The notes: generated by a model from the sequence alone, not told the origin. A DNA stretch of 63,937 nucleotides, filler included, from Candidatus Hydrogenedentota bacterium (GCA_040752395.1; 4 parts of 4 records of this genome joined end to end with filler, not necessarily neighbours in it), one strand, 5' to 3'. Counted from the whole stretch's first letter, positions 1 to 55,725 are shown. Translations and numbers: made by a program.

Positions 1-16
1 ACCATCTACGTTTTGA

Positions 17-322
17 GGCACAAAGGCACAAAGGCACAGAGGCACAAAGGCACAAAGGATATTAGGGGATGGGTCATAGGGGATGGGGTATATTAGGGGT
101 TGTGAGTCGCAAGTCGTGAGTCAAAACAGGACTCGAGACTCAAGACTCAAGACTCAAGACTTTTCAGCAGGTTCCGGGCTTTTGGCTCCAGCCGGCTGTA
201 GCCCGTAGCCCGAAGTCTGAAGCCTGTCCTGATACTTATCACTTCTTGCTTCTTTCGTTATCTTTCTTTTTCGTTATCTTGCTTCTTGCTTCTTAAGTAA
301 ATTCTACCGCACCAATAACTGA
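17..322. repeat. Copy of the modular intergenic repeat (GGCACAAA octamers; GAGTC/GACTC heptamer hairpin; GGCT/AGCC hairpin; TTGCTTC/TTATCTT tract)
   Basis: The same blocks (e.g. GTCGTGAGTCAAAACAGGACTCAAGACTCAAGACTTTTCAGCAGG, GGCTCCAGCCGGCTGTAG) recur at about 15 intergenic sites in the window. Confidence 0.9.
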
Positions 323-368
323 CGTATTACGAAAAAAATACATCGTTAGCGATAAATTTTAGAATTGC

Positions 369-396
369 TTGACATCTGTTATAATAATTGTAAATT
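369..396 (+). promoter_or_regulatory. Putative sigma70 promoter of the OB-fold gene
   Basis: TTGACA at 369-374 and TAAATT at 391-396, 16-bp spacer, upstream of ATG 416. Confidence 0.45.
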
Positions 397-415
397 ATTA
401 ACAAGGGCAGGGAAA

Positions 416-1882
416 ATGAGTGATTGGTATTATGCTGATTATGGTCAATCAATAGGTCCTTTTAACGAAGAACAGATAAAAGATTTAATAAAAAATAATA
501 AGATAAAAAAAGAGACTTTTCTATGGCGTGAAGGCTTCTCTGATTGGACACCATTAGAAAAACTATCTGAATTTTCATCCGCACTTGAATTTAAATATGA
601 AAAGAAACCAAGAATTGAGATGCCGCAAGATATAAAACCAGGTACTGAAACTTCGTTTTATATACCAAAAGAAGAAAACGTAGTAAAACAAATAATTGAT
701 TGGGCTTCAGGCCCGGCGGAAGAGGAGGGTCAGTGTCCGACCTGCGGTTATTTTGTGGGCTCGCTTTTAACGTGTCCGAGATGCGGGGCAAGACCCGGAA
801 AACGTATCAGCATACGGCTACTTAAAATCGGCTCGATCGCAGGCTCTATCATCGGTATCATTTTACTCTGGCTTGCTGCTTATGCAAAAAATCCGATACA
901 GATAAAAGTTGGCGATATTGATGAACGAATGAACGGCGCCCTTGTTAAAATTGTAGGAAGAGTTACATCTTATGAAGAAAATACTGAAAATAATACTTTA
1001 CGAATGCAAGTCGATGATGGCACAGGTGAGATTTTATTAAATGCATATAATAAACTCGCTCAATTCAAAAAAGTGCTCGCAGATAATATGCCAGGTATCG
1101 GGGATAAAGTTGAGGTCACAGGCCAGATTAATGAGACCCAGAAATTTGGAGTCTCTATGTTTGTATCTATCCCTGAAAGAGTTAAACTACTTGAAAGATT
1201 TAAATTAAAAGACGTTGATATCAGTGATATCACTGAAAAAGATGTAAGCGAGATAGTTAGAATTAAAGCCTCGATTGCTTCTTATAAAAAGCAGACCACA
1301 AGAAAAGGAACTGTACTACATAAATATGTGCTTTCTGATGGCACCGGTAGCATTAATATGACAATATTTGGTAAAGAGATGGATGGTCTTCCCCAAAAGA
1401 CCCAGAAAATACTCCTGGATAAAAAAAATAAACTTGAATTAGTCGTTAAAATCGGTCAATACAGAGAAGAATTACAGGTCGAGATTATGGATTATAACAA
1501 GATAAAAGTTCTCGGAGATGCTGAAGAAATAACCGAAGAAGCAGTAAAGGAAAAAGAAGAGGAAACCATCACACAAGAACAAGAACGAGAAATAAAGAAA
1601 CCAAAAAAAATAAAAAATATAACTAAATCTGATCTTAAAAAAATATGCTATATCGAAGCAGAAGTATCAAAAATGGATATAAAAGAAAAAGGTAAACTCA
1701 TAACACTCGATGACGGCAGTGGTGAGATACAGGTTATGTTCTGGAAGAGTTTAAGAGATGAGATAAAAGGTTTCAATAAGATTAAAGAGGGTGCTAAAAT
1801 ATCAGGGAACTTTAAAGTTGATGAATATAAAGGTAAGTTACAATTAAAACTTACAGACTATGAGAATATAAAAGTAGAGTAG
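416..1882 (+). CDS. GYF_2 domain + zinc ribbon + single TM helix + three tandem OB-fold (RPA/tRNA_anti-like) nucleic-acid-binding domains
   Basis: N-terminal WYY..GQSIGPF..LWREG..DW (GYF_2); CPTC..CPRC; hydrophobic IGSIAGSIIGIILLWLAAYA; three repeats with DDGTG/SDGTG/DDGSG OB motifs. ATG 416 after a purine-rich RBS preferred over TTG 365. Confidence 0.8.
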   Translation: MSDWYYADYGQSIGPFNEEQIKDLIKNNKIKKETFLWREGFSDWTPLEKLSEFSSALEFKYEKKPRIEMPQDIKPGTETSFYIPKEENVVKQIIDWASGPAEEEGQCPTCGYFVGSLLTCPRCGARPGKRISIRLLKIGSIAGSIIGIILLWLAAYAKNPIQIKVGDIDERMNGALVKIVGRVTSYEENTENNTLRMQVDDGTGEILLNAYNKLAQFKKVLADNMPGIGDKVEVTGQINETQKFGVSMFVSIPERVKLLERFKLKDVDISDITEKDVSEIVRIKASIASYKKQTTRKGTVLHKYVLSDGTGSINMTIFGKEMDGLPQKTQKILLDKKNKLELVVKIGQYREELQVEIMDYNKIKVLGDAEEITEEAVKEKEEETITQEQEREIKKPKKIKNITKSDLKKICYIEAEVSKMDIKEKGKLITLDDGSGEIQVMFWKSLRDEIKGFNKIKEGAKISGNFKVDEYKGKLQLKLTDYENIKVE

Positions 1883-1899
1883 TATCGTCGCTTCGCTTC

Positions 1900-1982
1900 A
1901 TTGCAAATTGCAGATTGCAAATTTATTTAGTCTTCTTCGTTGTTTTGTTTTTTCATTCATTTTGCAATTTCCAATTTCAAAT
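1900..1982. repeat. Tandem heptamer inverted repeat (TTGCAAA/TTGCAGA ... TTGCAAT/TTCCAAT)
   Basis: attgcaaattgcagattgcaaat followed by attttgcaatttccaatttcaa. Confidence 0.6.
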
Positions 1983-2066
1983 CTTATTTCCAATTCGACA
2001 TTCAAAAGAATGTCGCCTTGCTTCTTGCTTCTAACTATAACCAGGTGATTACATAGAGTAGCTATT

Positions 2067-3482
2067 ATGGAAGGGCTTATTATTATAATTTACACTTTAC
2101 TCGGTACTTTAATCGGTGCTTTACTTTGTCTTATCCCATCTCTTCATATATATAATGTTACTGGTATAGCTTTATTACTCTGGCTGCATGTTCGAACTAT
2201 AATCCCGTATTATGCTATGGGCTCATTTTTTATGGCTATGATGGTTTCATTTGCCTTTATAAACACGATACCAATGACATTTTTTGCAGCAGCTGATGAA
2301 TCCGCGGGTGCTACTATACTCCCATCGCTTGATATGCTAAAGAACGGCAAGGGAAAAGATGCCTCGCTACTTGCGGGTCTCGGTACACTTGTCGGCGGTA
2401 TCTTATTAATTGTTCTTACGCCTGCATTCTACCTTTTATTTACTTATGTCTATGCTATTATGCGACCGCATCTTCACTGGATACTTGGTATAATTATGGT
2501 TTTTTATGTTATGAGTGAATGGCCTAAAGGTTGCGGCAGGGGAAAGACCTGGTGGCGAAAATTTCTTGATGGCTGGCGGAATGTCTATATGGGTATGCTG
2601 ACATTTACATTATCTGCGATAGTTGGATTAATTGTTTTAACAAAACCGCTTGCACCACCTGAAATGAGTTTTCAAAATATTATGCCTATATTTCTTGGGT
2701 TCTTTGCATTCCCTTCAATAATACAGGCTATGCTCTCTGATATTAAGATCCCTAAACAATATACCAATTACAGATATATTAATGCGGGCTGGGATGATGT
2801 AGCATATTCTTCGCTGCCAGGTGTGATAGGTGGTATGATCTGTGCCTTGATGCCAGCTGTTACTGTCGGTATATCAGCTATCTTCGCAAGCCATATGACA
2901 AATCATAGGAACTTACGAGCAGCCTCATTTGAAAAACCAAGAGAACCTGATACCCATATCTATCTTCATACACCAGAAATATATTACACCCAGGAACGGA
3001 CTTTTCTTATTGCCGGTGGAATAAATAAAATTATCTATTATGTTGGTGCATTTCTCTTTATTTTTATCTTAACAGAGATCACACCTAATGGGATGGGACG
3101 TGGTGGTATGAATATCATTTTGAAACCTGTATTTGCTCCTGAACCAGGTGATTACCCGGTTATACTTGCTTCTATATTTTTCAGTTCCTGTTTATGTATG
3201 CTGTTATTAATCTGGTTCACTGATTTAACTATTAAAGTATTACCTAAAATCAATATAAAATTAACCTATAGTATTGTGACGGTTGTATTATTTATAATTT
3301 TATATATTATGGGTGGTGGCTGGACCGCGGTATTAATTGCAGCAGTAACTACCTGCATCGGTTCTATCCCTGTATTTTTCAATTGCAGGCGTTCACATTG
3401 TATGGCTGTACTTTTAGTTCCGATCGCTATAAATATGGCTGGTTATGGTGATACGATAGCAAGATTTTTGAGGTTAGTATGA
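2067..3482 (+). CDS. TctA-family (tripartite tricarboxylate transporter large permease, archaeal COG1784/DUF112-like) membrane protein
   Basis: About 12 TM segments; LIPSLH and ILPSLDMLKNGKG match the TctA-family GLIPG.H and LP.H.LL..G.G motifs. Confidence 0.7.
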   Translation: MEGLIIIIYTLLGTLIGALLCLIPSLHIYNVTGIALLLWLHVRTIIPYYAMGSFFMAMMVSFAFINTIPMTFFAAADESAGATILPSLDMLKNGKGKDASLLAGLGTLVGGILLIVLTPAFYLLFTYVYAIMRPHLHWILGIIMVFYVMSEWPKGCGRGKTWWRKFLDGWRNVYMGMLTFTLSAIVGLIVLTKPLAPPEMSFQNIMPIFLGFFAFPSIIQAMLSDIKIPKQYTNYRYINAGWDDVAYSSLPGVIGGMICALMPAVTVGISAIFASHMTNHRNLRAASFEKPREPDTHIYLHTPEIYYTQERTFLIAGGINKIIYYVGAFLFIFILTEITPNGMGRGGMNIILKPVFAPEPGDYPVILASIFFSSCLCMLLLIWFTDLTIKVLPKINIKLTYSIVTVVLFIILYIMGGGWTAVLIAAVTTCIGSIPVFFNCRRSHCMAVLLVPIAINMAGYGDTIARFLRLV

Positions 3483-4606
3483 AGGGTTTAACACATTTTA
3501 TGTCAGCAGTAGCTACTGCTACTTTTATCCCTGAGGTTGTAAGGATGTCGACCTCGGGTCGACTCTCATCAGTTGAAGGTGCTTGTAGCTCATTTATTTT
3601 GCTATTACCAGGGATATTCGGGCTTTTACCTGATACAATGGATTTTAAACTCGGTCAATTTTTTTCCATCGCTGAATATGAGATAGACCCTGGCCCACGT
3701 AACCCCAACCCACAGAAAATGGCTGAAACCTTTGCTCTGGCTGTGAAAGAAGCAGGTGATACTGGTAAATTTGTTCGGGTTCAATTCTTTCCCATCCAAC
3801 TCGGCGCAAGTTTATGGCGACAGTACAATATAATTTTTGAGCCCAAAGAAGTTATAATTCAGTTCAATGAAAAGGTAAAGACTTCACAGGTACCTATACC
3901 GGGTTCAGCCCCGAAACATAATAGAGTTGGCAGAGCTAAACTCGATTATGAATTAAAAAGTAAAAATATGGATATTGATTGGTTGAATAAAGTGGTGCGG
4001 TGGCTCAGACAAAAGATTAAAGGCCCTGACAAGCCTGCAGGAGCCATCAAGCCATCTACTCTTGACATATTAAGCGGCACACAATTTGGGTTTCAAAAAG
4101 AAGCTGATGGGAAAATATATTTCAACTGGCTGCCATGGCACAGAACCTGGAGTCATTCGTATGTTCTCTGTTTTCTTCTGACAATACCAATTTACATTAT
4201 TACTTACTTATTGGGTTTTCATAACTGGTGGTTATATGGTTTAGTAGCGTTTCTTGGCTCGTTTGTTCACATAACCGAGGATATGACGGGTCATATTGGG
4301 GGTGCATTATTCTGGCCTTTACATAAACCGCGTTCTGAAGGTTTAGAGCTCTTCAAAGCAAGCGACCCGAGAACCAATTTTAGTATAGATTATGCATCAA
4401 TTGTTCTTGCGATATGGAATGTTGACAGGTTCTCGACAAAACTCATACCTATGCCTGGCTGGTTATATCTTATACTTTTTTTAGTCATCCCGTTGTTTTT
4501 TTATTTCAAATACGTGGCAAAAATAAAACAGAAACTTATAGAGCAGGAAGAAAGAGCTTTGATGGAGGAGCCTGATGGCACAGGCGAGGCAGTCGTTGAT
4601 TCATAA
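3479..4606 (+). CDS. YdjM-family membrane-bound metal-dependent hydrolase with a large soluble insertion
   Basis: MKGLTHF, GLLPDTMD, HRTWSHS and HITED motifs; ATGA overlap with the upstream gene. Confidence 0.8.
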   Translation: MKGLTHFMSAVATATFIPEVVRMSTSGRLSSVEGACSSFILLLPGIFGLLPDTMDFKLGQFFSIAEYEIDPGPRNPNPQKMAETFALAVKEAGDTGKFVRVQFFPIQLGASLWRQYNIIFEPKEVIIQFNEKVKTSQVPIPGSAPKHNRVGRAKLDYELKSKNMDIDWLNKVVRWLRQKIKGPDKPAGAIKPSTLDILSGTQFGFQKEADGKIYFNWLPWHRTWSHSYVLCFLLTIPIYIITYLLGFHNWWLYGLVAFLGSFVHITEDMTGHIGGALFWPLHKPRSEGLELFKASDPRTNFSIDYASIVLAIWNVDRFSTKLIPMPGWLYLILFLVIPLFFYFKYVAKIKQKLIEQEERALMEEPDGTGEAVVDS

Positions 4607-4750: not shown

Positions 4751-4990
4751 ATGAAAACAGCTGTGTTTATCCCGGATGACATTTTTTTAGCGATCGAAAA
4801 ACACTCGAGATTATTAAAGGTTTCGAGAAGCAGACTTATTTCCGAGGCTGCGAAACGGTATATATCTGAATTAGAAAAGCAAGAAATTTTGGATACGCTT
4901 AATGAAGTTTATGCCAAACCCTTTGAAAGTAATATTAAAAGATATAAAAAGCACTTCGCTAAAAATATATTGAGAGGGGGAAAGTATTGA
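4751..4990 (+). CDS. Ribbon-helix-helix antitoxin (MazE6/ChpI-like)
   Basis: MKTAVFIPDDIF...VSRSRLISEA...LNEVY pattern; overlaps the downstream toxin. Confidence 0.8.
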   Translation: MKTAVFIPDDIFLAIEKHSRLLKVSRSRLISEAAKRYISELEKQEILDTLNEVYAKPFESNIKRYKKHFAKNILRGGKY

Positions 4991-5337
4991 TAAAACAGGG
5001 GGATATTTTCTGGGTTAATTTTGGGTATAAACGAGGTTCTTCGCCAGCATACCGGCATCCGTGCCTTGTGGTCCAGAACGATATATTTAATAAAAGCCTT
5101 ATAAAGACCGTTGTTGTCTGTCTTATAACAAGCAATGTTATGCTTTCTCGCGCTCCAGGGAATGTATTTTTAAAGAAAGGCACAGCAAATCTTCCTAAAG
5201 ACAGCGTTGTAAATATTTCGCAGATTACCACCGTGGATAAAAGCGAACTTGTTGAAAAGATAGGCCATTTATCTGCTGATAAATTTACTGAGGTAATAAG
5301 CGGAATTAACCTACTGATATCCAAACAGGAAATTTAA
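4987..5337 (+). CDS. mazF: PemK/MazF-family endoribonuclease toxin
   Basis: QGDIFWVNF..GS.PAYRHPCLVVQND.FN, ITSN, LPKDSVVNISQITTVDK. Confidence 0.9.
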   Translation: MIKQGDIFWVNFGYKRGSSPAYRHPCLVVQNDIFNKSLIKTVVVCLITSNVMLSRAPGNVFLKKGTANLPKDSVVNISQITTVDKSELVEKIGHLSADKFTEVISGINLLISKQEI

Positions 5338-5616: not shown

Positions 5617-5844
5617 AGTCGTGAGTCATAAGTTATCAGTCTTGAGTCGTCAGACCTAAGTCCTTAGTCTTTGACTTACGACTTATTGACCGATTTTACG
5701 ATTCTGGACCCTCGACTTTTCAGCTGTAGGCCGTAGCCCGAAGTCTGAAGCCTGTCCTGATACTTCTCACTTCTTCCGTTATCTTGCTTCTTGCCTCTTG
5801 CTTCTACTTGATATTATTACACTTACAACGTTTTTCGAAGGAGG
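5617..5844 (+). repeat. Modular intergenic repeat copy ending in TTTTTCGAAGGAGG, the RBS of the Hsp70-family gene
   Basis: Degenerate GAGTC/GACTC block, then the GCTGTAG..AGCCTGTCCTGATACTTCTCACTTC..TTGCTTCTACTTGATATTATT blocks. Confidence 0.85.
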
Positions 5845-5848
5845 CCGT

Positions 5849-7360
5849 ATGATACATCTCGGAATTGATTTCGGAACAACTAATACTGTAGTAGCCTATG
5901 AACTTGATGGTAAATACAATATTCTTAATTTCAATGAACATTCATTTATACCTTCATTAATAACAAAGTATAAAGATAATTATTATTTTGGTTTTGATGC
6001 TTTAAGCCTTCTCTCTGAAAAACAAGCCCTGGTAATCCATTCTATAAAACAATATCTGCATAATTACTACCATAATAAGACATTAACTATTGATAACCAT
6101 ACCATTAGCATTGAGGATGTTCTTATCGGATTTTTTAGTTATTTAAAAGAAAGAATTGAGGTTGCTCTACCTTTTGATTCAAAAACAGGATGGGATGTAA
6201 TAGCGACGGTTCCTGCAAATGCTTCAAGCCAGCAGCGGTGGATTATGCTTGAGGCTATGCGTAAAGCAGGGCTTTGTGTGAGAGCACTTCTTAATGAGCC
6301 AACAGCCTCTGGTTTTGAATTCTCGCATTATTTTTTAAAGGGTAATGCAAAAGAAAAAGATGTTTATTATGTACTTATTTATGATTTTGGTGGTGGGACC
6401 TTTGATGTTTCGCTGATTAAAGTTAAGGAAAGCCAATACCAGGTCATTGGGTCTACGGGTCAGAACCAGCTCGGTGGTGATATCTTTGATGAAAAACTAT
6501 TTAATCTTGCATGCGAAAAAGTAGCTTTAGATAAAAGACGATTAAGCTATAGACAGAAAATAGAAGGAATACTTGAGAGTAGAACGCTGAAAGAGAGTAT
6601 CTCGTTATCACGCGGGTTTCTTCAAAGAAATCTAAATTTTGATTTTGAAAATATTAATATTCAGAGTAAAATAGCTAAAATAAAAAGTAATGAATATTAT
6701 GAAGCGATCAAACCAGAAATAAATAGAACGATTGAGTTAATAGAAGAACTGTTACAATCTCAAACTATAAAATCTGCTTCTTTAGGATTGGATTCTATTG
6801 ATTATATTTATCTTGTTGGTGGTTCTTCAAAACTGCCATATGTTATTCATGCTATCCAGAAAGTTTTTACTAAAGCGAAAGTAAAGGTGTCTGATAATAC
6901 CTTTGCGACATCTGCGCTGGGTGCAGCAATATATTCTTCTAAAAAAGACGTTAAATTGATTGAACGATTCACAAGAAATTTTGGGGTTATACGATTGTAC
7001 AACGGCAGGGAAATATTTGACCCTATATTCCCCAAAGGTACAGAACTCCCGCAAACTGAAAACCAGGTTACGAAAATAATAAGAGATTATGACCCAGAGT
7101 TTAATATCGGTCATTTTAAATTTCTTGAATGTAGTGAGATCAATCCTGATTTATCACCATCTGGTGATATAAATCTTATAACTGAGATCAGATTTCCCTA
7201 TGACCCTGAATTAAATATTATTGAGAATCAAACTATTGAGCGTAAAGATTTAAGCCACATTCGTGTCTGTGAAGAGTATCATTGTGATGCCTTTGGTATA
7301 ATTAATGCCAGAATAACCCGCAAAAACGACGGCTTCACTGTTGGATATAATATTAACTGA
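5849..7360 (+). CDS. Hsp70-family ATPase, atypical (not canonical DnaK)
   Basis: GIDFGTTNT, TVPA, LLNEPTA, YDFGGGTFDVS and LVGGSSK motifs; only 503 aa from ATG 5849, with no helical lid. Confidence 0.85.
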   Translation: MIHLGIDFGTTNTVVAYELDGKYNILNFNEHSFIPSLITKYKDNYYFGFDALSLLSEKQALVIHSIKQYLHNYYHNKTLTIDNHTISIEDVLIGFFSYLKERIEVALPFDSKTGWDVIATVPANASSQQRWIMLEAMRKAGLCVRALLNEPTASGFEFSHYFLKGNAKEKDVYYVLIYDFGGGTFDVSLIKVKESQYQVIGSTGQNQLGGDIFDEKLFNLACEKVALDKRRLSYRQKIEGILESRTLKESISLSRGFLQRNLNFDFENINIQSKIAKIKSNEYYEAIKPEINRTIELIEELLQSQTIKSASLGLDSIDYIYLVGGSSKLPYVIHAIQKVFTKAKVKVSDNTFATSALGAAIYSSKKDVKLIERFTRNFGVIRLYNGREIFDPIFPKGTELPQTENQVTKIIRDYDPEFNIGHFKFLECSEINPDLSPSGDINLITEIRFPYDPELNIIENQTIERKDLSHIRVCEEYHCDAFGIINARITRKNDGFTVGYNIN

Positions 7361-9215: not shown

Positions 9216-11651
9216 ATGAGAAAAATGCGTAATACCTCTTTTGTACTTTTTACTTCTTACTTTTTATTTCTTATTTTTATAACTGCGCTACATAGCGGAG
9301 AACCTTCTTTTTCTAATATACCGTTGGATGAATATATAGAACTTATTGAAAAAATTGAAGACTCGAAAAAGCCTGTAATTAAACCTATTGTTTCACCAAT
9401 CACAACGGTCCTTGTATCAGGTAATTATACTCTAATTCCAGAAAATGAACAGTTGTCAGTAGATGGACAAATAGAGATACACCAGTTTGTTGATACTTTC
9501 TCTATTATTCCGCTTTTTAAACAGAATTTCAGGTTTAAAAATGCGTTACTTAATAATAAATCAGCTCCATTACTTGTTACCGAAAATAACGAACAAGCTA
9601 TTTTATTAAGAACTTGCGGTAAATATAGATTATCATTTTCAGGTTCTGCTCCACTAACACAGAAAAATCAAACTCTATGTAAATCGCAAATTATTCTACC
9701 GCGAAGCGGCGTTTCACAAATTTTTTTTAATAAACAATTCTCAAAAGAAGCAACCTATCAACGGAGTGTAGACTATGAAGGTAAAGAGATAATCGAAGTA
9801 ACCTGGATACCTTTATCAAAGGTCATATCAGCTGATATAAAAATTAAAACCATAATCAAGGAAGAGAAATTATCTGCTTTATTGAATCAATCAGTAGTCA
9901 TCTCGGAAAATTTTATTAGCGGAACAATCAATACTGTGTTAAATACGTTTAACTTAAAGGATAAACCGATATTTGTATCTTATCCTGACTGGATACAAAT
10001 CTTAAATGTTTCTTGTGACAGATCAGATATCACGGTTTCTTTTGAACCGGTTTCTGACACTTTGACTTTAATCCGACCATCTTCTTTCTGGCAAGAATCT
10101 GTAAATCTTTTTTTATATTATACCCAAAAAAGTCCAGTCTTTTCTGAGAATGTTAATATCCCACAGATTACAATAGTAGATGCTAAACCCGAGGTTATAA
10201 AAATAGGTATATCATCTGATAACGTGCGGTTATCACCGGTGAAAATAGAAAAAGCTGGGTTACTTGACCCTAGTGAACTCAGTTTCCCATCACTTTTTGC
10301 TTATAAGTCAATACATAAAGATTTTTATATTGAATTCAAGCGAGAGCCGATAAACCCTCTAAATGTTATAACCGGCTATTGCAAGAACTCTTCTTTTCGA
10401 GTAATCCGAACAAATGATGGTGATGGCGTAATTCAATCAATATTTAAAATTAAATCAACTAATCTCCCGTTTTTTACATTAAAGATACCAGAGGGTAGTA
10501 CTGTTCTTTCTATATTTTCAGATGGGCAGCCTGTAAAAGCCGGTAGTGTAGATAAACAAACAGTTAAAATCCCATTACCTGTAAATATTCAGGAAAAAGA
10601 GACTAGCCTTGAGGTCTGGCTAAATATCCCGAAAAAGAAATTTTATCTTTTTAATTTTATAAAACAAGAACTACCGTATATCGAGCTTATACAGGAAAAT
10701 GTAAAACTTAATATGCTATATCCAGAAGAAGTATATCCTGTATATTTTTCAGGCAGCTGGGACCAGCTCCCTCTCCCACGTGAAACAGGGGGAATATATC
10801 GAATGATATTTCTTGTTATAAAAAAAATACTGAGATTCATTTTTATTCTTATTATCTTTTTATTGGTTGTTTTTATTATTTTACTCTTTATTGCGGGTTT
10901 GTGGTTTATTGTCTATAAAATTATTAAACTAATATTACCATATCCTAAGTTATTAACTATGCTGACTAAAATTTTCTCTATATTTATTATTTTTATTATT
11001 TGTGTGGTTATTTTTATTTTTTTAATTATAGTTTTTCTTTCAATGAAACATCAACTTTCAACAGAGTATAGACCGGTTGTTAATGAAAAAGTGGTTGGTG
11101 AAGGGCAGGCATCATTAAGTGCAGAGATATACGGTCCTGGAACCGAACAAGAAGAAATGGCTGATGAAAAAAGACTCAAAAAAGCAAAGATAATTGATAA
11201 AATCAGAGAAGAGAAGAAACCACAAAAAACAAGAACCGAGGAGTTTTTTAAACAAGAAATAAAACAAACACTATATCTTACAGAAGGGGTTCTGCCTGTA
11301 AGATTTCAATTCCCAGAAGAAGGCATAGCATATACAGGTCAAAACTTTTTCCCAGAAGCCCGTTTACAAACTATTAATATTGTTCTTGTATCAAAGAATG
11401 GTATTAGTTTTATATATCTTATTTTTTTCTGTATCGGGTTTTATATTGGTTATAAATCATATAAAAAATGGTATAAATCGCAACTTGAATTTTTCAAGGT
11501 CTCGGTTTTATTTATTATAATCTCAATCGCTGTTTCTTATGTATTCTACGGCATTATTTTCAATTTGATCATTGGTTTTATTATGGGAAGATACTCACCT
11601 GTTTTAATGAACTATATGGGAGGAAAATTTTTGAAAACCGGAGGTATATAG
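9216..11651 (+). CDS. Large exported/membrane protein of unknown function (paralog 1)
   Basis: N-terminal signal-like segment, long beta-rich region, C-terminal TM helices; GVLPVRFQFP..G motif shared with the next gene. Confidence 0.75.
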   Translation: MRKMRNTSFVLFTSYFLFLIFITALHSGEPSFSNIPLDEYIELIEKIEDSKKPVIKPIVSPITTVLVSGNYTLIPENEQLSVDGQIEIHQFVDTFSIIPLFKQNFRFKNALLNNKSAPLLVTENNEQAILLRTCGKYRLSFSGSAPLTQKNQTLCKSQIILPRSGVSQIFFNKQFSKEATYQRSVDYEGKEIIEVTWIPLSKVISADIKIKTIIKEEKLSALLNQSVVISENFISGTINTVLNTFNLKDKPIFVSYPDWIQILNVSCDRSDITVSFEPVSDTLTLIRPSSFWQESVNLFLYYTQKSPVFSENVNIPQITIVDAKPEVIKIGISSDNVRLSPVKIEKAGLLDPSELSFPSLFAYKSIHKDFYIEFKREPINPLNVITGYCKNSSFRVIRTNDGDGVIQSIFKIKSTNLPFFTLKIPEGSTVLSIFSDGQPVKAGSVDKQTVKIPLPVNIQEKETSLEVWLNIPKKKFYLFNFIKQELPYIELIQENVKLNMLYPEEVYPVYFSGSWDQLPLPRETGGIYRMIFLVIKKILRFIFILIIFLLVVFIILLFIAGLWFIVYKIIKLILPYPKLLTMLTKIFSIFIIFIICVVIFIFLIIVFLSMKHQLSTEYRPVVNEKVVGEGQASLSAEIYGPGTEQEEMADEKRLKKAKIIDKIREEKKPQKTRTEEFFKQEIKQTLYLTEGVLPVRFQFPEEGIAYTGQNFFPEARLQTINIVLVSKNGISFIYLIFFCIGFYIGYKSYKKWYKSQLEFFKVSVLFIIISIAVSYVFYGIIFNLIIGFIMGRYSPVLMNYMGGKFLKTGGI

Positions 11652-11654
11652 TCA

Positions 11655-13859
11655 ATGAAAAAATTATTTGTATTATTTAGCATATTTGTTTTAATTTTAT
11701 CTATCAATACGTTTATTTTTGCGCAAGCCTCAACAAGTGTGAGCATACCCTGGCAGGAATTCAAGAAATTACTCGATGAAATACAAAAACTAAAATCACC
11801 TGATATTAAACCTCTCTCACCTGTCCCTTATATCATCTCAGAATCAAATTACAAACTCAGGGCAGAAAATGACATATTAAAGGGTAATTTAAATCTACGC
11901 ATCTATGTATTAAACGATATCTGGGTTGAGATACCTTTACTTGACCAGAATCTATCAATCGAGGATGCAAAAATTAATGGTCAGAATCTACTTTTATATA
12001 AGAAAGAAGGGAGATATTATTCATTAATCAGGGGAACTGGTAATTTTGATATTTCACTCAAATTTTCCTGTAAAATCACAGTTACTTCTGCTACGAATAC
12101 CATCTCGTTTGCTGCACCACAAACTCCGGTAACATTGCTTGAACTTACTATCCCTGGAAAAAATGCACGTGTAACATCAACCCCTGAACCGGTCGCTACT
12201 ACCAAAAGTCTTGATAATGCAACAGTATATACAGCTTATTTCCCTTCAACCGAGCATATCGGACTTGAATGGGTTTCTGCTGTAAGAGAGATTGAAGCCA
12301 CAAAAAAAGAACCGCGAATCTTTATTACTACTTCTTCTCTCTTAACTGTCGGTGAAGGCCATATACGAAATCGATTATTTATAAATCTTGAGGTTCTGCA
12401 ATCAGGCATTGATACTTTGAAAATCTCATTACCACAAGGTATGAATCTATTATCTCTAACACCTGACGAAAATATCGAATGGGAGATACAGGATATCGAA
12501 GGTAGTCAGATTGTTTTAATTAAAACAGCATATCCTATGCTTGGTAATAAAACATTTATTCTTGATGCTGATTTTCAGATGCCTGATGTCTCGAGTTTTG
12601 TTAAACTAACAGCAACTGCTATCGAACCATCACACAGAACAACTGGTTACATAGCAATTTCAGCGCTTACAAACGTTGAAGTGGTACCAAAAGAAGTGAA
12701 TAACCTTGTGCACATAGACCAGACAGAACTGCCACAGGATTTAATTCAAGCAACAGATAAACCGATACTCCTCTCTTTTAAATACGTTACTCTTCCTTAT
12801 GATATAGGCATTGAAATAACAAGACATAAAGACATAGCGGTCCTGACAACAGCAGCAGATAGGGCTGAAATACTCACGCTTAATACAGGCGAGCAGGAAA
12901 TAACCCGATGCATATTTCAGATTCGAAACAATCTACGTCAATATCTTGAGTTCGAGCTACCGGCGGATGCGGTTCTCTGGTCAACGTTTACAGACAACCA
13001 GCCAGTAAAACCTGGACTTGGTTCAAAACCAAACTCGATACTTGTTCCTTTATTAAAATCAAGACCCGGGGAAGGAGAGGAGGCTTTATTCCCGGTTGAG
13101 ATACTTTTTTATCGTGATAAAAAAGGTGCCTCTTGTCTTGGCTCTTTACATCAGATACTACCAGGAGTAGATGTTCCAATAAGTACGATACAGTGGGAGA
13201 TTTATTTTCCTTTTGAATGGAAAGTCATTGGTATCACAGGAGATTTTAGAAAAGCAAAAGCAGTTATTACTCCTTTGGCCCAGGAACGTGAGAAAAAATC
13301 TTATAAATTGGAGAGCCAGGCGATACAGAGTAATATCGCTTTGTATCAACAGCAGATGCAGCTAAAACCAGGACTTTCTGCAGGTATGTTGCCTGTTCGT
13401 GTTGATATTCCTCGTGTGGGGCAGTATAAAGTTTTTAGTAAGAATTATTATAATCCTGATAAAGGTAAAAGCCCCGGGTACAGGATTTTTTATGTAACAC
13501 CGTTTACTATAAAGATATTTAGATTATTATCAGTAATAGCCGGTTTTATTTCTGTAATGATATTAGAGAGGTATGTGAGTAAGAAATTAAAGATAATTGA
13601 GCCTGGGGAACCGCTTTCATTCTGGCGTCGTTTAAAACCGACTTCAAAAGAATTTTTATATTGTATCACTGCGATAATTGTGATTAGTATCTTTCATCAT
13701 TTTATATCGCCAATCTGGGGTGCTGTATTACGCGGTATATTGTTTGGGATAATCATTGGTCTTCCGTATCAGTATTTAAAAAACACAAGGAATCAGGTTT
13801 CAGGAACAGGTTCTATATTAGATGAGGGGTCGGGGAGTTTTAGTTCAAAAAATCATTAA
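11655..13859 (+). CDS. Large exported/membrane protein of unknown function (paralog 2)
   Basis: Signal peptide (..IFA-QAS), VSIPWQEFKKLL, STFTDNQPVKPG, GMLPVRVDIP..G, C-terminal TM helices; 3-bp gap from paralog 1. Confidence 0.75.
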   Translation: MKKLFVLFSIFVLILSINTFIFAQASTSVSIPWQEFKKLLDEIQKLKSPDIKPLSPVPYIISESNYKLRAENDILKGNLNLRIYVLNDIWVEIPLLDQNLSIEDAKINGQNLLLYKKEGRYYSLIRGTGNFDISLKFSCKITVTSATNTISFAAPQTPVTLLELTIPGKNARVTSTPEPVATTKSLDNATVYTAYFPSTEHIGLEWVSAVREIEATKKEPRIFITTSSLLTVGEGHIRNRLFINLEVLQSGIDTLKISLPQGMNLLSLTPDENIEWEIQDIEGSQIVLIKTAYPMLGNKTFILDADFQMPDVSSFVKLTATAIEPSHRTTGYIAISALTNVEVVPKEVNNLVHIDQTELPQDLIQATDKPILLSFKYVTLPYDIGIEITRHKDIAVLTTAADRAEILTLNTGEQEITRCIFQIRNNLRQYLEFELPADAVLWSTFTDNQPVKPGLGSKPNSILVPLLKSRPGEGEEALFPVEILFYRDKKGASCLGSLHQILPGVDVPISTIQWEIYFPFEWKVIGITGDFRKAKAVITPLAQEREKKSYKLESQAIQSNIALYQQQMQLKPGLSAGMLPVRVDIPRVGQYKVFSKNYYNPDKGKSPGYRIFYVTPFTIKIFRLLSVIAGFISVMILERYVSKKLKIIEPGEPLSFWRRLKPTSKEFLYCITAIIVISIFHHFISPIWGAVLRGILFGIIIGLPYQYLKNTRNQVSGTGSILDEGSGSFSSKNH

Positions 13860-16348: not shown

Positions 16349-16770
16349 CTCCTCTGAAAAACTTTGTAACTATAATAATATCAAGTAGAAGCAAGATAAA
16401 CAAACATCTGGTTTTTCATACTTTGTGTAGAGCACAAAAACGCAATAACCCAATAACCCAATAGTGTAGAGCGCAAACGCGCTCATGAGTACTCCTTCCA
16501 CAAGCCCCCTGGTATTTATTTTATGTAGTGCTCCCTGTTTGTCGAGACATTTTTTAGTAAATTTTTGGCACATCAGGCAGGCAAAGACACACACAAGAAA
16601 AAACTTTGTGCCTTTGTGCCTTTGAAAGTAAGAAGTGAGAAGTGAGAAGTATCAGGACAGGCTACAGGCTACAGGCTACGGACTACAGCCGGCTGGAGCC
16701 AAAAGCCAAAAGCCTGCTGAAAAGTCTTGAGTCTTGAGTCTCGAGTCCTGTTTTGACTCACGACTTGCGA
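16349..16770 (-). repeat. Modular intergenic repeat cluster running into the contig end
   Basis: CTCCTCTGAAAAACTTTGTAAC block, REP-like GTAGAGCGCAAACGCGCTC, TTTGTGCC, GGCT/AGCC and GAGTC blocks. Confidence 0.9.
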
Positions 16771-16870
16771 NNNNNNNNNNNNNNNNNNNNNNNNNNNNNN
16801 NNNNNNNNNNNNNNTTAATTAATTAANNNNNNNNNNNNNNNNNNNNNNNNNNNNNNNNNNNNNNNNNNNN
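16771..16870. other. Artificial contig joiner (N spacer with TTAATTAATTAA linker)
   Basis: 44 N + TTAATTAATTAA + 44 N, identical at all three gaps. Confidence 0.95.
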
Positions 16871-17162
16871 ATGAAAAACTAAAGATGATATAAAAAGAGT
16901 CGTGAGTCACAAGTCGCAAGTCGTGAGTCAAAACAGGACTCAAGACTCAAGACTTTTCAGCAGGCTTTTGGCTTTTGGCTCCAGCCGGCTGTAGTCCCTA
17001 GCCTGTAGCCTGTAGCCCAAATTATTAGGGTTGCGAAGTTTTTCAGAGGAGATTCAGACGTTTTCTTGCCTCTTGCTTCTTGCTTCTTTCGTTATCTTTC
17101 TTTCCGTTATCTTGCTTCTTGTTTCTTGCTTCTTAAGTAAGTTCTACTGCACCAATAACTGA
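16871..17162 (+). repeat. Modular intergenic repeat cluster at contig start
   Basis: Same blocks as 17-322, including the AAGTAA.TTCTAC.GCACCAATAACTGA tail. Confidence 0.9.
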
Positions 17163-25322: not shown

Positions 25323-26198
25323 ATGGTATTAGAAAAAGCATTAGGTTTTGTTGAAACAAAAGGGTATACCGGTGTCATTGAAGCAACTGATGTTATGCCT
25401 AAAACCAGTGAAGTAGAGTATTTCCATCATGTATTAATAGGTGGTAGTTATGTAACAACAGTATTCAGGGGTGAAGTTGGTGCTGTGCGGAGCGCTGTGG
25501 AACGTGCGAGCGAACAATCTGCTAAAGTAGGAACATTGCATACCTCTAATGTAATCCCAAGACCATTTGATGCGATATTTGATTTTATAAATAAACTTAA
25601 AGAAGTAGAAATAGATGATCCTGCTATGCAGGCGCTTGGCATGATAGAGACCGTTGGTTTTGTTCCGATGATTGAAGCAGCGGATGCAGGGTTAAAAGCA
25701 GCTAAAGTTATTGCATCAAACTGGGTAACTATTGGCGCAGGATATACTACAGTATTTTTTAGAGGCGAAGTAGCTGCTGTAAGGTCAGCGGTTGATGCTG
25801 GTGTTAATGCTTCTCAACGCGTTGGCGAAATAATCTCTCAGCATGTTATACCACGACCACATCAACTGACTAATCTAAGGCTGCCTGTAGGTAAACCCAA
25901 AAATCTTGAACCACTTGATAAAAAAGCCGGCTTGGGTGAAGCACTTGGTATAATTGAAACAAGGGGTATGGCAGCACTTGTTGAAGCAGCTGACGCTGGT
26001 GTTAAAGCTGCAAGAACTATTATTACAGGGTTTTATAAGGTCGGTTCTGGTTATGTTACAACTACTTTTAGAGGTGATGTGGCTGCTGTCAGGGCTTCTG
26101 TCGAGGCAGCTTCTGCTGCTTCTTCCAAAGTTGGTAAACTTGTATCTGTTCACGTTATCCCAAAACCATATCAATCCGTTGAATCATTGCTATATTAA
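25323..26198 (+). CDS. Bacterial microcompartment shell protein with three tandem non-permuted BMC domains
   Basis: Three copies of ALG.[IV]ET.G....EA.D...K....[IV]G.[GS]Y.T..FRG[ED]V.AVR..V.....V.IP[RK]P. Confidence 0.95.
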   Translation: MVLEKALGFVETKGYTGVIEATDVMPKTSEVEYFHHVLIGGSYVTTVFRGEVGAVRSAVERASEQSAKVGTLHTSNVIPRPFDAIFDFINKLKEVEIDDPAMQALGMIETVGFVPMIEAADAGLKAAKVIASNWVTIGAGYTTVFFRGEVAAVRSAVDAGVNASQRVGEIISQHVIPRPHQLTNLRLPVGKPKNLEPLDKKAGLGEALGIIETRGMAALVEAADAGVKAARTIITGFYKVGSGYVTTTFRGDVAAVRASVEAASAASSKVGKLVSVHVIPKPYQSVESLLY

Positions 26199-30858: not shown

Positions 30859-31283
30859 AGCGCGGTTTGCACTCTACACTATTGCGTTCTTGCGTTCTTG
30901 GGTTATTGCGTTATTGCGCTCTACACAACGTATGAAAAACTAAAGATGATATAAAAAGAGTCGTGAGTCGCAAGTCGTGAGTCAAAACAGGACTCAAGAC
31001 TCAAGACTTTTCAGCAGGCTTTTGGCTTTTGGCTCCAGCCGGCTGTAGTCCGTGGCCTGTAGCCTGTCCTGATACCTCTCACTTCTTCCGTTATCTTGCT
31101 TCTTGCTTCTACTTGATATCATTAGAGTTACAATGTTTTTCAGAGGAGTAGTCATGAGCGCGGGGTGCGCTCTACACAAAGGATGAAAAAGATAGGAGAT
31201 AGGAGTTAGAAGTTAGGAGTTCGTAATAATAGATCCGAGCTCCGAACTCCGAACTCCAAACTTCGAACTTTTTCGGAGAAGAG
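30859..31283 (+). repeat. Modular repeat: one full unit, the start of a second unit, and a GGAGTT/AACTCC module
   Basis: Block order REP-GAGTC-GGCT-CCTGATAC-TTGCTTC-TTTTCAGAGGAG, then REP again. Confidence 0.9.
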
Positions 31284-40360: not shown

Positions 40361-40466
40361 AAGTATTATTTCTTTTATTTGACATTTTTTTTATAGTATT
40401 TTAAATTAAATGACGATTTATTATAAGAAAGATAACGAAAGAAGCAAGAAGCAAACGAGGAGATTA

Positions 40467-43400
40467 ATGCATTATAATTATAGAAGATTAGTCTATGCTA
40501 TAGTAGCTTTATTTGTTATAATAGTAACTCCTTTATTTGCAGATGATACATCGGTATGGCTTTCATTAGATGGTACACAGGATTCAATAACCACAGCTAA
40601 AATAGGAGAGTTACTCGATGTATGGGTAATAGACCCTTATGCTAATGTAAATCCACTTGCTCTTGATACTGTAACCGTCACACTTTTTTCCCAGATACCT
40701 GGTAATGATACAGAGACCTTAACTCTTCTGGAATTAGATATAAATCTTGGGATATTTCATATAAATGGTGGGGGAGTTTTATTATCAACTACAACAACTG
40801 AGACAAACACAAATAACAAGATTTTAGTAACAAAGGTTAATGACACAGTAGCTGTGTGGTATGGTGTAAGACCATACGAGGATTCGATAATAGTACAACC
40901 CGCGACCACGGCTGCTGAGGCTGATTTTATTGATAGTTTTTTTATACCAGGTCCTGCTTTAATAGTAGAAACGTATTCAATCTATCCCGGATTTATACCT
41001 CCACAGCAGAATGACACAGTTTATGTCGTGATTACAGATGCTGATGCGAATGAAGACCCTTATGCTCAAGACCAGATTACAATAACAGTAACTAATAATC
41101 AGACACTGGATTCACGGTCATTTACTCTTATAGAGACCTCTGATACAACAGGTGTCTTTTATTCAGCAGCCACAGGTGTGATTCTTGAACTCATCGATAC
41201 TACTTATGTGAGTACTTTAGATAATATTATTGCCTGTACAACGGTCTCTGTTAATTACTTAACATTAAGGTATCTTGACCCGGATGACAACGATTTAACT
41301 TTTGACACTGTTTCTGTTGTACCTGAACCTAACTCAATTATTGTGATAACTGATGGGAGTGATACAGAGGATTCATTTGCCATAGGAGATACGAGGCTTT
41401 TTGTACTTGTTAAAGACTATGATGAAGACATAGATGGTTCTGTTGATGAGGTTTCGGTTACAGTATATAGCAATACAGGTGATAGTGTTATTGTTACTAT
41501 AAGGGAGTCGATGCCGCCGTTTTCAGCAGGCGTATTTCACGATAATTTAAACAACGGCGTTATTTTAACTGATAGCGGCACAGCTCAATATGGTGATAAT
41601 ATTCTTCTGGTTGGTAACGCTTCTACGTATAATTATATTACAGCTGTTTATCAAGATAATGATGCGGCGAATGACAGGGTTACGGATACTGCATCTTGCT
41701 ATCGAAAAAATGATACAGGGATAATCGAATTTATTAATGCCCAGGCCTCGATGGTGGATACCTATTCAATAGGAACGAATATTTATATTATTCTTACTGA
41801 ATACGATGAAAACCAGGACCCGATGGTAGCAGAAACAGTATATGTTACGATTATAACCCAGCGGAATGATTCAGAGGTTTTTATTTTAACTGAAAATGGT
41901 TTGGCTTCAGGTATATTCAGTAATACAGGAACATTAGGAATATTTTTAACTGACACAAAAGGAGCGACGGCTGACAGTATAGTTTTTGCAATCAATAATG
42001 ACACGATTGAGATAAGATGGCAAGACAACGCAGTGATAGAGGACAGGGATACAGTGGCTGTCTATAAAGTTCCAAGTGACGGCGATATATATATCTATGA
42101 TAACTTCCAAACATTATCTGATACAGCAAGACCAGGTGATACAATACTAATTCTTATACGTGACAATGATAAAAATTTAGACCCGTCATCTCAAGATTTA
42201 GCAGGAACAGTAACAATATATTCAAAACTTAATGGTGTTGTTATAGATTCTATTGTTTTATTATCTGTATTAGAGTCAGGTAATGCAACAGGTGAATTCA
42301 CTCAAGAGATAACCTTATCTGATACAACAAGCGGAGAAACAACACTTTTAGTTGGATATAATTTTGTAGTTGAGGCGATATATACTGATTCTGTTTATAG
42401 TACTGATACAGGGATTGACAGCATCGTGATAAAATTAAGATATACTTCCTCAAGCGGTATTTTTACAGTAGATACCCAGGCGAGTATGGCTGTTGATTCC
42501 TATGCTATTTATGACTCGATATATATTTTAGGAACTGATTATAACAGAAATATTAATCCTCTGAGTAAAGACACAATAGTTGTTACTCTTTCTACAAACT
42601 GTGGTGATACTGAAATATTAGTATTAACAGAGACAACAGATACAAGCGGTATGTTTATTAACCTGTTGCCTGTATATATTTATGATACTTTATTAGTGGT
42701 AGGCGATAATATTTTAACTGCTGGATATGGCGATACTATTACAGTAAATTATATTGATATTTATGATGCATCTGATTCAGCAACAGGTAGTGTTATTGTA
42801 AGACGCATCAATAGAAGTTCTAACATTACTCTTATTAACAGCCTCGGTCAGGATACAGATCATTATTATGTTAATTCGAGTTCAGTGTATGTTATTTTAA
42901 CAGATTATGATGCGAATGTGAATCCGGAATCACGAGACACCGTTGTTGTTACTTTATTTACTTTCAATGGTTCACAATATATTGATACAGAAATTATTGT
43001 ATTAACAGAGATATTATCATCAACAGGCGCTTTTACGAGTTCTCAAACTATTACTCTGTCGAGTTCGCAGTCAGGGACAGGTATTTTACTTTGCGGAAAT
43101 TCAGACTCTGTTGTTGTAAAATATGAAGACATAGGTTCAAGCATAACTGATACAGTCTATGATACAGCTATAGCTATTTATGTTCCTGTTGTTTCTAACT
43201 TAACAATACTTGACAAGACAGGCATTGTACCTACAAATATATTTATTGGTGACACGTTTACTATAATACTTACTGATTTAGATGAAAATAAAAATCCGTT
43301 AGCAATTGATACAGTACTTATAACAATAGCTGTATATCCTACTTTAACAAGCCGAAGTGATACAGTTTATTTACAGCTCAGTGAAACAACTGAATCAGGT

Positions 43401-49191: not shown

Positions 49192-49507
49192 CTCCTTTGA
49201 AAAACATTGTAACTATAATAATATCAAGTAGAAGCAAGAGGCAAGAAGCAAGATAACGGAAAGAAAGATAACGAAAGAAGCAAGAGGCAAGAAGCAAGAT
49301 AACGAAAAAAGTAAGAAGTAAGAAGTGGGAAGTGAGAAGTATCAGGACAGGCTACGGGCTACGGACCACAGCCGGCTGGAGCCCGGAGTCTGAAGCCAAC
49401 ATATCATCCTTAGTTTTTCATCCTTTGTGTAGAACGCAATAACCCAATAACCCAAGAACCCAATAGTGTAGAACGCAAACGTGCTCCTGTTGACTCCTTA
49501 CTAAAAA
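49192..49507 (-). repeat. Modular repeat cluster after tRNA-Arg
   Basis: GAAGCAA/GATAACG tract, CAGGACAGGCTAC block, REP-like block. Confidence 0.88.
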
Positions 49508-50224: not shown

Positions 50225-50608
50225 ACAGGCTACAGGCTACGGACTATAGCCGGCTGGAGACAAAAGCCCAGAGCCTGCTGAAAAGTCTTGAGTCTTGAGT
50301 CCTGTTTTGACTCACGACTTGCGACTCGCGACTCACGACTCTTTTCATATCATCTTTAGTTTTTCATACTTTGTGTAGAGCGCAATAACCCAAGAACCAA
50401 ATAGTGTAGAGCGCAACCCGCGCTCATGAGTACTCCTCTGAAAAACTTTGTAACTATAATAATATCAGCTAGAAAGTCAAAAGTTAAAAGTAAAGAAAGC
50501 GAAAATATACACTTCCTTGCCGTATCTTTCAATTTTTTAATCTTTGAATCTTTGAATCTTTGTGCCTCTGTGCCTTTGAAAGTAAGAAGTAAGAAGTAAG
50601 AACTATCA
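50225..50608 (-). repeat. Modular repeat cluster at contig start
   Basis: GGCT/AGCC, GAGTC, REP-like GTAGAGCGCAACCCGCGCTC, CTCCTCTGAAAAAC and TTTGTGCC blocks. Confidence 0.88.
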
Positions 50609-55531: not shown

Positions 55532-55725
55532 TGGCTTTAGGCTCCGGGCTTTAGGCTCCAGCCGGCTGTAGTCAGTAGCCTGTAGCCCGTCCTGATACTT
55601 CTCACTTCTTCCGTTATCTTGCTTCTTGCTTCTTGCTTCTTTCGTTATCTTTCTTTTTCGTTATCTTGCTTCTTGCTTCTTGCTTCTACTTGATATTATT
55701 AGAGTTAGAATGTTTTTCAGAGGAG
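55532..55725 (+). repeat. Modular repeat supplying the RBS of TPR gene 55733
   Basis: GGCT/AGCC block, TTGCTTC tract, ending TTTTTCAGAGGAG. Confidence 0.88.

Follow-up and report, generated by a model that had tools for sequence, protein, structure and literature searches.

A stretch of 63,937 nucleotides from Candidatus Hydrogenedentota bacterium (GCA_040752395.1; four parts joined end to end with filler, hereafter the window) carries near its start three consecutive genes. They encode a membrane-anchored protein with three oligonucleotide/oligosaccharide-binding (OB) folds (gene 1), a divergent TctA-like permease (gene 2) and a membrane metal-dependent hydrolase of the YdjM family (gene 3). 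We consider it most likely, with a probability of roughly 55%, that this trio captures and imports nucleic acid and is a bacterial member of a widespread module, consisting of an OB protein, a TctA-like protein and, frequently, a YdjM-like protein. An uptake function had already been suggested by a first-pass annotation, which was made from the sequence alone. Judged by architecture, the archaeal relatives of the module would include the two genes that Methanococcus maripaludis needs for natural transformation. That archaeal pair was known before; the bacterial host, the coupled membrane hydrolase and the modelled interface between receptor and permease are new here. All features of the locus are listed in Table 1.

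The product of gene 1 has a GYF_2 domain, a zinc ribbon, a basic stretch (RPGKRISIRLLK), one transmembrane (TM) helix and three RPA-like OB folds. Each part of this layout, as described in the first-pass annotation, was confirmed. The protein contains a single hydrophobic segment (residues 131-158), which is directly preceded by the basic stretch, and PF01336 matches over three stretches (E 2.5e-17). Among 34 aligned bacterial homologues, PF01336 is matched by all 34 and PF13742 by 27, and the four zinc-ribbon cysteines are invariant (34/34). The GYF_2 domain is present in only 6 of the 34 homologues; it is a lineage-specific accessory and is predicted to be cytoplasmic. An AlphaFold2 model built from 34 homologues (predicted local distance difference test, pLDDT, 86.5) has the TM helix followed by three beta-barrel domains. 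When this model was compared to the PDB with Foldseek, 363 matches were obtained at E<=0.001. The best of these (E 7e-13 to 1e-7) are RPA70, the HIN-200 domains of p204/IFI16, LEF-3 from baculovirus, archaeal RPA, Cdc13, Teb1 and Pot1. As modelled, the OB folds resemble tandem-OB binders of nucleic acid.

The N-terminal part of gene 1 is reminiscent of Myxococcus GltJ, which also combines a zinc ribbon, a GYF domain and a TM segment (GYF domain against PDB 7z3c_A, E 1.7e-11; NCBIfam GltJ, 2e-09). However, only the GYF head is alike: the score is 37 bits as compared to an equivalog cut-off of 450, and the outer part is an OB array here. There is also a weak signal for DUF4131 (PF13567), the N-terminal domain of ComEC. 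Its match to the TM helix and first OB fold stays below the cut-off (E 0.0083; 16.3 bits versus 31.6), and it is found in 6 of the 34 homologues at E<=0.01 (best 1.4e-5). The promoter-like hexamers directly 5' of gene 1 are weak, being consensus matches only (18 such sites in the region versus 19.0 expected in shuffled sequences).

The OB folds are probably located on the outer face of the membrane (in the periplasm, should the host have two membranes), and a cytoplasmic placement is unlikely. This N-in topology is predicted because of the positive-inside rule (there are five Lys/Arg just before the helix and a balanced flank after it), the invariant zinc ribbon on the N-terminal side, the archaeal OB homologues with a signal anchor and the geometry of the complex model described below. 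It agrees with the orientation given in the first-pass annotation. The opposite has to be considered: the trio might release DNA or RNA, or the OB folds might be cytoplasmic and have a membrane-tethered role in DNA damage. RPA-like folds are normally intracellular, and ydjM of E. coli, which codes for an inner membrane protein, is listed in the LexA/SOS regulon (PMC6590174). This is countered by the topology evidence, which puts the OB folds outside, and by the archaeal mutants, which lose DNA uptake (PMC10133366), so that we hold a release or damage function to be very improbable.

A direct contact between OB protein and permease is supported by a complex model that passed a test with controls. 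ESMFold2 docks OB residues 100-265 onto the TctA-like protein with an ipSAE (interaction prediction score from aligned errors) of 0.61 (0.57, 0.61 and 0.61 in individual runs), the best of three controls reaching 0.00. The runs share at least 70% of the contacts, and the pLDDT of the partner is at least 72. Of 80 solved complexes, 58 reach this score mark, as do 2 of 110 mismatched pairs; these counts are only rough because custom alignments were used. In the model, the anchor helix packs on TctA helices ~178-192 and ~420-438, and the first OB fold touches TctA loops 192-204, 341-357 and 456-471. These loops hold the invariant or nearly invariant residues F202, Q203, G346, G347, N456, M457, G459 and G461. 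On the OB side, residues 139-155 of the helix meet TctA 182-189 and 423-431, and residues 170-177 and 237-255 of the first OB fold meet the three loops. The most positive TctA loop (147-177, mean K+R 4.7) and RR441-442 are placed on the side of the basic N-terminal flank of the OB protein.

Gene 2 codes for a TctA-like permease, consistent with the earlier assignment: the PF01970 match extends over profile positions 1-422 of 423 (117.8 bits; cut-off 28.9). Canonical TctABC, a tripartite tricarboxylate transporter (TTT), is thus resembled over the full profile. Gene 2 differs in being devoid of TctB and TctC, in having a very remote sequence and in being partnered with a membrane-anchored OB array rather than a soluble binding protein. 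The first-pass annotation had pointed to the missing partners, and no tctB- or tctC-like gene adjoins gene 2 according to a Pfam analysis of the open reading frames (ORFs) of the locus; also, no conserved fourth neighbour occurs in related loci. A cognate tctBC was not found elsewhere either when five related genomes carrying the cluster were checked for tctB, tctC, comEC and dprA. TctB (PF07331) and TctC (PF03401) were each detected in 0/5 of these, and the control genomes were matched. TctA matches amounted to one per genome in four of them and two in the fifth (G005), where both copies (L050 and L055) are part of such clusters.

In an exhaustive search against 1.84 billion representatives, the gene 2 protein had 778 matches at E<=0.001; at 1e-10 there were 229, and at 1e-30 there were 55. 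The first number is far below what would be expected for the large TctA family. Among 72,556 plasmid records, a single one was matched at E<=1e-5. Judged from these searches, the sequence of gene 2 is very remote from ordinary TctA. The TctA-like profile had no sequence match among solved structures. Tree rows of the P0220 type should not be read as canonical TctA of the TctABC type. P0220 itself matches only 2 of the 72,556 plasmid records, and both matches are OB-linked genes from cyanobacteria. These plasmids belong to the cultured species Cylindrospermopsis curvispora GIHE-G1 (L218, NZ_CP060823.1, 12563-21750) and Pseudanabaena galeata CCNP1313 (L219, NZ_CP112877.1, 80006-89190). In both, a gene with a PF01336 OB domain is directly upstream of the TctA-like gene, which in C. 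curvispora is followed by a NERD nuclease-related gene.

The three genes are kept as a set. An initial scan, made with the TctA-like protein of the window, resulted in nine loci, with the gene order kept wherever the contig allowed. With a 14-sequence profile, 391 stretches of genomes were hit, 375 of them coding for a relative. The top 80 and the window itself made up a sample of 81 loci, for which ORFs were called and profiles were iterated from the three window proteins; contig ends were taken into account when scoring adjacency. The OB gene is upstream of the TctA-like gene and adjacent to it in 60 loci and nearby in 7 (4 cut by a contig end, 10 none). The YdjM-like gene is adjacent downstream in 55 and nearby in 3 (6 cut by a contig end, 17 none). 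Both adjoin the TctA-like gene in 47/81 loci. One locus scored as lacking a YdjM-like gene carries a fusion: in an Anaerolineales metagenome-assembled genome (L073, 3117-5549), a single protein of 810 aa has TctA at 5-410 and YdjM at 644-753. A search for fused forms among 7998 candidates revealed no such longer protein at E<=1e-5, which is weak evidence. When the other ORFs of the 81 loci were clustered, no fourth conserved neighbour emerged; the largest family, histidine kinases, occurs in 16 loci and is not fixed in position. A look-up of sequencing runs gave none for the cluster and no RNA source.

According to record titles, the carriers include Elusimicrobiota, Hydrogenedentota, Lindowbacteria, Sumerlaeota, Muiribacteriota, Ozemobacteraceae, CSSED10-310, Spirochaetota, Planctomycetota and many Chloroflexota. 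The loci without a YdjM-like gene are mostly from Chloroflexota, so the OB/TctA-like pair is the core and the hydrolase a frequent third part. A second sample of 54 loci was drawn from clade A, the clade of the window protein (see below). In its 42 bacterial loci, an OB gene is adjacent in 30 and near in 3, a YdjM-like gene is adjacent in 21, and both are adjacent in 20. In the 12 archaeal loci (Thermoplasmatota, Bathyarchaeota) the corresponding values are 11, 1, 12 and 11, and all three genes are present in 12/12; two OB genes occur in 11 of them. The first-pass annotation had proposed the three genes as one module, and their joint conservation in 47/81 loci and in the archaeal loci speaks for this.

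It could be argued that the neighbourhood arose by chance and that the three proteins act independently. In the window, genes 1 and 2 are indeed separated by a spacer of 184 nt that contains a terminator-like hairpin. In most relatives, however, this gap is at most 30 nt, and the gene order is found again in over 15 phyla of bacteria as well as in archaea, the genes overlapping or nearly abutting. Together with the fusion and the complex model that passed its controls, this makes a chance arrangement next to impossible. The module is real, ancient and widespread.

The TctA-like relatives were analyzed with FastTree and, for 111 rows, with a quick IQ-TREE run for which only the Shimodaira-Hasegawa-like approximate likelihood ratio test (SH-aLRT) was computed. 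They split into two clades, A and B, which are each fully supported and are parted by fully supported long branches. Clade A contains 68 bacterial and 12 archaeal rows. Stand-alone TctA-like proteins had been called typical of archaea in the first-pass annotation; this does not apply to the clade of the window protein, which is mostly bacterial. The window protein belongs to a starred 16-row bacterial clade within clade A. The archaeal rows share a clade with Myxococcota, Wallbacteria, Verrucomicrobiota and Lentisphaerota, which implies transfer between the domains, in whichever direction. The OB proteins of these archaea have the same layout as gene 1, with CxxC..CxxC, a basic stretch, the TM helix and the OB part.

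Clade B consists of archaeal proteins of ~400 aa, mostly from DPANN, together with one cluster named "Thermococci archaeon", Methanocellales, Alkanophagales and a few longer proteins. Among 80 clade B loci, an OB protein of ~115 aa, made up of an anchor helix at the N-terminus and a single OB fold, was detected with the bacterial OB profile in 44 and is encoded directly upstream in 30. Taking the two clade A samples and clade B together, the OB gene directly adjoins the TctA-like gene in 60/81, 41/54 and 30/80 loci; this pairing forms the conserved core throughout the clades sampled. A YdjM-like gene was found in none of the 80 clade B loci (68 none, 12 cut by contig ends). In DPANN genomes, a search for YdjM-like proteins gave no strong match in 5 genomes (one weak match, 156 aa) and two weak matches in 151. 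A homologue search with a protein of the Thermococci type (P0190) returned names from DPANN, Methanocellales, Alkanophagales and Aenigmatarchaeota, and no Methanococcus. The ESM Atlas provides an additional lead, and no more than a lead, with a cluster of archaeal 466-aa proteins that all have YdjM and, in 39% of the cases, also PF01336 (TM-score by query 0.66, feature score 0.79).

The connection to DNA uptake comes from archaeal genetics. In M. maripaludis, MMJJ_13020, an OB-fold protein with one TM segment, and the adjacently encoded MMJJ_13030, which is TctA-like and has 11 predicted TM helices, are each essential for natural transformation. This was established by transposon hits and in-frame deletions, and both defects were rescued by complementation (PMC10133366). 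A TctA-like homologue is also essential for transformation in Methanoculleus thermophilus, and the authors see in the TctA-like protein a candidate for the archaeal DNA transporter that is still missing (PMC10133366). The link to methanogens that the first-pass annotation had given is borne out by this study. As in the window, a single-pass OB protein adjoins a TctA-like protein for which TctB and TctC are missing. The window differs by its bacterial host, the three OB folds, the cytoplasmic zinc ribbon and GYF domain, and the coupled YdjM-like gene. The words "hydrolase" and "metal-dependent" do not occur in the text of PMC10133366, and the passages of that paper considered here deal, as far as bacteria are concerned, only with ComEC and Salmonella TctABC (PMC10133366). 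In the full texts searched, supplements aside, no paper on a link between TctA-like proteins and YdjM/DUF457, or on a bacterial module of this kind, was found.

Gene 3 belongs to the YdjM family and is translationally coupled to gene 2 by an ATGA overlap that is directly visible at 3479-3482, as the first-pass annotation had it. The PF04307 score (51.1 bits) is above the cut-off of 29 and the match covers residues 215-320 plus a short N-terminal stretch only. Residues H6, D52, D55, H221, R222, W224, H226, H264 and D268 are invariant across 31 YdjM-like sequences; of these, H6, D52, D55, H221, H226, H264 and D268 are presumably the metal ligands. E. coli YdjM is resembled in the Pfam match and in the conserved His/Asp pattern. 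Gene 3 differs from it by a soluble insert of ~160 residues, by a conserved acidic C-terminal tail and by its coupling or fusion to a TctA-like protein. In the AlphaFold2 model (pLDDT 91.3), the membrane helices are interrupted by this alpha/beta insert. The C-terminal flank KYVAKIKQK and loop 271-298 are predicted to be cytoplasmic by the positive-inside rule, and therefore the conserved His/Asp residues and the insert are probably located at the inner membrane face, away from the OB side. In that case, the enzyme would act on arriving cargo and not on an outer strand. The nuclease-type partner (NERD) in other modules favours a phosphodiester as substrate.

YdjM-family enzymes are integral membrane metal hydrolases whose substrate is not known, and the family is placed by Pfam together with phospholipase C and P1 nuclease. 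No chain of either enzyme occurs among the Foldseek matches or in the top 50 of a wide VIA-align search for the gene 3 model. Foldseek against the PDB gave nothing at E<=0.001, and the protein has no sequence match among solved structures. With this background, the trio might alternatively be an envelope or lipid module, in which the YdjM-like protein acts on a phospholipid or a lipid-linked phosphate of the inner leaflet. Flipping or export of the product would then fall to the TctA-like protein, and the OB array would have a polymer of the envelope as its ligand. The position of the conserved residues at the membrane interface would suit such an enzyme. We consider this improbable, given that the OB folds belong to the nucleic-acid type and that no tie to envelope-synthesis genes and no further conserved neighbour exists in the 81 loci. 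Moreover, the modules of clade B and 16/81 clade A loci do without a YdjM-like gene, which makes the hydrolase an add-on to the OB/TctA core.

The C-terminal tail of YdjM-like proteins (residues ~364-375 of gene 3) has a conserved acidic motif in close relatives, EE-PDG-x-G-[DE]-x-[VI]-[VI]-D in the alignment. It is tempting to speculate that a partner in the cytoplasm docks on this tail, for instance the GYF domain of gene 1 or its zinc-ribbon head.

In its logic, the trio resembles ComEC/ComEA: in both, an outward module of the OB or DNA-binding type is combined with a polytopic conduit in the membrane and with a metal-dependent hydrolase. The trio differs in having neither the Competence domain (PF03772) nor a metallo-beta-lactamase domain, and its functions are assigned to separate genes of unrelated families. 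The five related genomes show that the two systems coexist: the ComEC Competence domain was detected in 4/5 and DprA in 5/5. The trio is thus an addition to the classical route rather than a replacement.

From these results, we propose that the three proteins form one machine of the cytoplasmic membrane. Gene 1 would be anchored N-in, and its outer RPA-like OB folds would bind nucleic acid in the periplasm. The anchor helix and the first OB fold would dock on the TctA-like protein, with the most conserved TctA loops facing the OB fold in the controlled model. The TctA-like protein may then move the bound nucleic acid, or fragments of it, across the membrane, by analogy with the archaeal genetics, and the YdjM-like hydrolase may cut or trim the cargo, probably at the inner membrane face. 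The imported nucleic acid may serve transformation or may be used as food. Of the earlier uptake interpretation, the architecture, the topology, the co-conservation, the absence of TctB/TctC and the OB-TctA contact stand, the latter by modelling. The independence from ComEC is unproven given the carriers just described, and the view of the permease as typical of archaea did not hold.

Several points weigh against nucleic-acid import. With ComEC in 4/5 and DprA in 5/5 related genomes, competence can be explained without a second importer. The tie to the Methanococcus pair rests on shared architecture and on the pairing with an anchored OB protein in both sampled clades. Among the 81 loci, 10 are without a detectable OB gene and 17 without a separate YdjM-like gene (one of these being the fusion). 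The wide VIA-align search with the gene 3 model yielded no nuclease-like fold; the top match, with a Z of 6.4, is a helical domain that is unrelated. Also, the predicted inner-face site of gene 3 probably misfits a nuclease that degrades an outer strand. The OB region is balanced in charge (K+R 59 versus D+E 58). Finally, characterised TctA/TTT proteins carry small carboxylates (PMC10133366) rather than polymers.

The last two points, together with the PF01970 membership of gene 2 and with the fact that OB folds are by definition also oligosaccharide binders, lead to the main rival explanation. The trio might import an anionic solute other than nucleic acid (a carboxylate, sugar acid, polyphosphate or oligosaccharide), with the OB array replacing TctC and the hydrolase releasing or modifying the cargo. 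Such a solute importer is unlikely in our view. The OB domains belong to the nucleic-acid families PF01336 and PF13742 in 34/34 and 27/34 homologues, and the structural matches are RPA, HIN and Pot1, not sugar-binding OB proteins. A related module adjoins a NERD nuclease-related gene, gene 2 is very far from ordinary TctA, judging from its few matches among representatives and plasmid records, and an archaeal pair of like architecture is needed for DNA uptake (PMC10133366).

Nucleic-acid import is therefore the preferred reading. A more far-reaching version is tentative, and on balance doubtful: the trio might be a complete, ComEC-independent polynucleotide importer, that is, the missing archaeal DNA translocase, with a further occurrence in over 15 phyla of bacteria, most of them uncultured. 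The OB array would then be receptor and ratchet, the TctA fold a carboxylate carrier turned into a strand conduit, and the hydrolase would cut the incoming strand.

The passage of DNA across the archaeal membrane is an open question, for which the OB/TctA-like pair is the sole genetic lead, with a mechanism that is not known (PMC10133366). The conservation in bacteria yields a set of defined parts, a model of the OB-TctA interface in which residues are named, candidate catalytic residues and cultured cyanobacterial carriers. If nucleic-acid import is correct, uncultured bacteria and archaea would have a second route beside ComEC for gene flow and the scavenging of DNA, and a transporter family regarded as a carrier of small carboxylates would handle polymers.

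Table 1. Features of the OB/TctA-like/YdjM-like locus (positions in the window).
Feature	Position	Strand	Basis
Promoter-like hexamers directly 5' of gene 1	358..398	+	TTTAGA-16-TATAAT (10/12, with TG), TTGACA-16/18 variants
Gene 1, single-pass membrane protein, 488 aa from ATG	416..1882	+	ORF
GYF_2 domain, residues 4-53	425..574	+	PF14237 E 7.3e-17
Zinc ribbon CxxC-x9-CxxC, residues 107-123	734..784	+	C107, C110, C120, C123
TM helix, residues 133-157, preceded by the basic stretch	812..886	+	AlphaFold2 model
OB fold 1, residues ~170-262	923..1201	+	AlphaFold2 model
OB fold 2, residues ~275-368	1238..1519	+	Pfam, AlphaFold2 model
OB fold 3, residues ~405-487	1628..1876	+	best PF01336 stretch 413-484; PF13742 E 5.9e-10
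Terminator-like hairpin between genes 1 and 2	1996..2015	+	8 pairs, 4 G-C, weak T tail
Gene 2, divergent TctA-like permease, 471 aa	2067..3482	+	PF01970 E 5.9e-34
Gene 3, YdjM-family membrane metal-dependent hydrolase, 375 aa	3479..4606	+	YdjM PF04307 E 1.4e-13
Alpha/beta insert of ~160 residues between YdjM-core membrane helices, residues ~63-225	3665..4153	+	AlphaFold2 secondary structure

Directly downstream of the trio is a MazEF-like pair (4751-5337), in which a gene for a PemK/MazF toxin (PF02452, E 2.9e-29) overlaps with an ORF of 79 aa that matches nothing in Pfam; the pair is not kept beside the trio in other loci. It is followed by a gene (5798-7360) for a divergent protein of 520 aa with an Hsp70/actin fold (HSP70, E 9e-40 over part of the profile; MreB_Mbl, 7e-08). 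The remaining window is ordinary bacterial chromosome, with genes for SecA, GlyQ/GlyS, phosphoglucose isomerase, NAD synthase and CstA, and a Pfam scan of its ORFs detected no competence gene. Three large ORFs (811, 734 and 1528 aa), located at 9216-13859 and 40410-44996, have no Pfam match at E<=1e-5. A protein with three bacterial microcompartment shell (BMC) domains is encoded at 25323-26198, followed by an alpha-amylase-family enzyme and phosphoglucose isomerase.

Several spacers of the window (16-294, 1900-2032, 16657-17134, 30882-31269, 49230-49465, 50524-50562 and 55533-55687) contain dense arrays of short tandem repeats with units of 7-8 bp, for example AGGCACAA (5.4 copies) and GACTCAA (4.6 copies). 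A unit of the TCTTGCT/CTTGCTT type occurs, on either strand, in at least five of the spacers.

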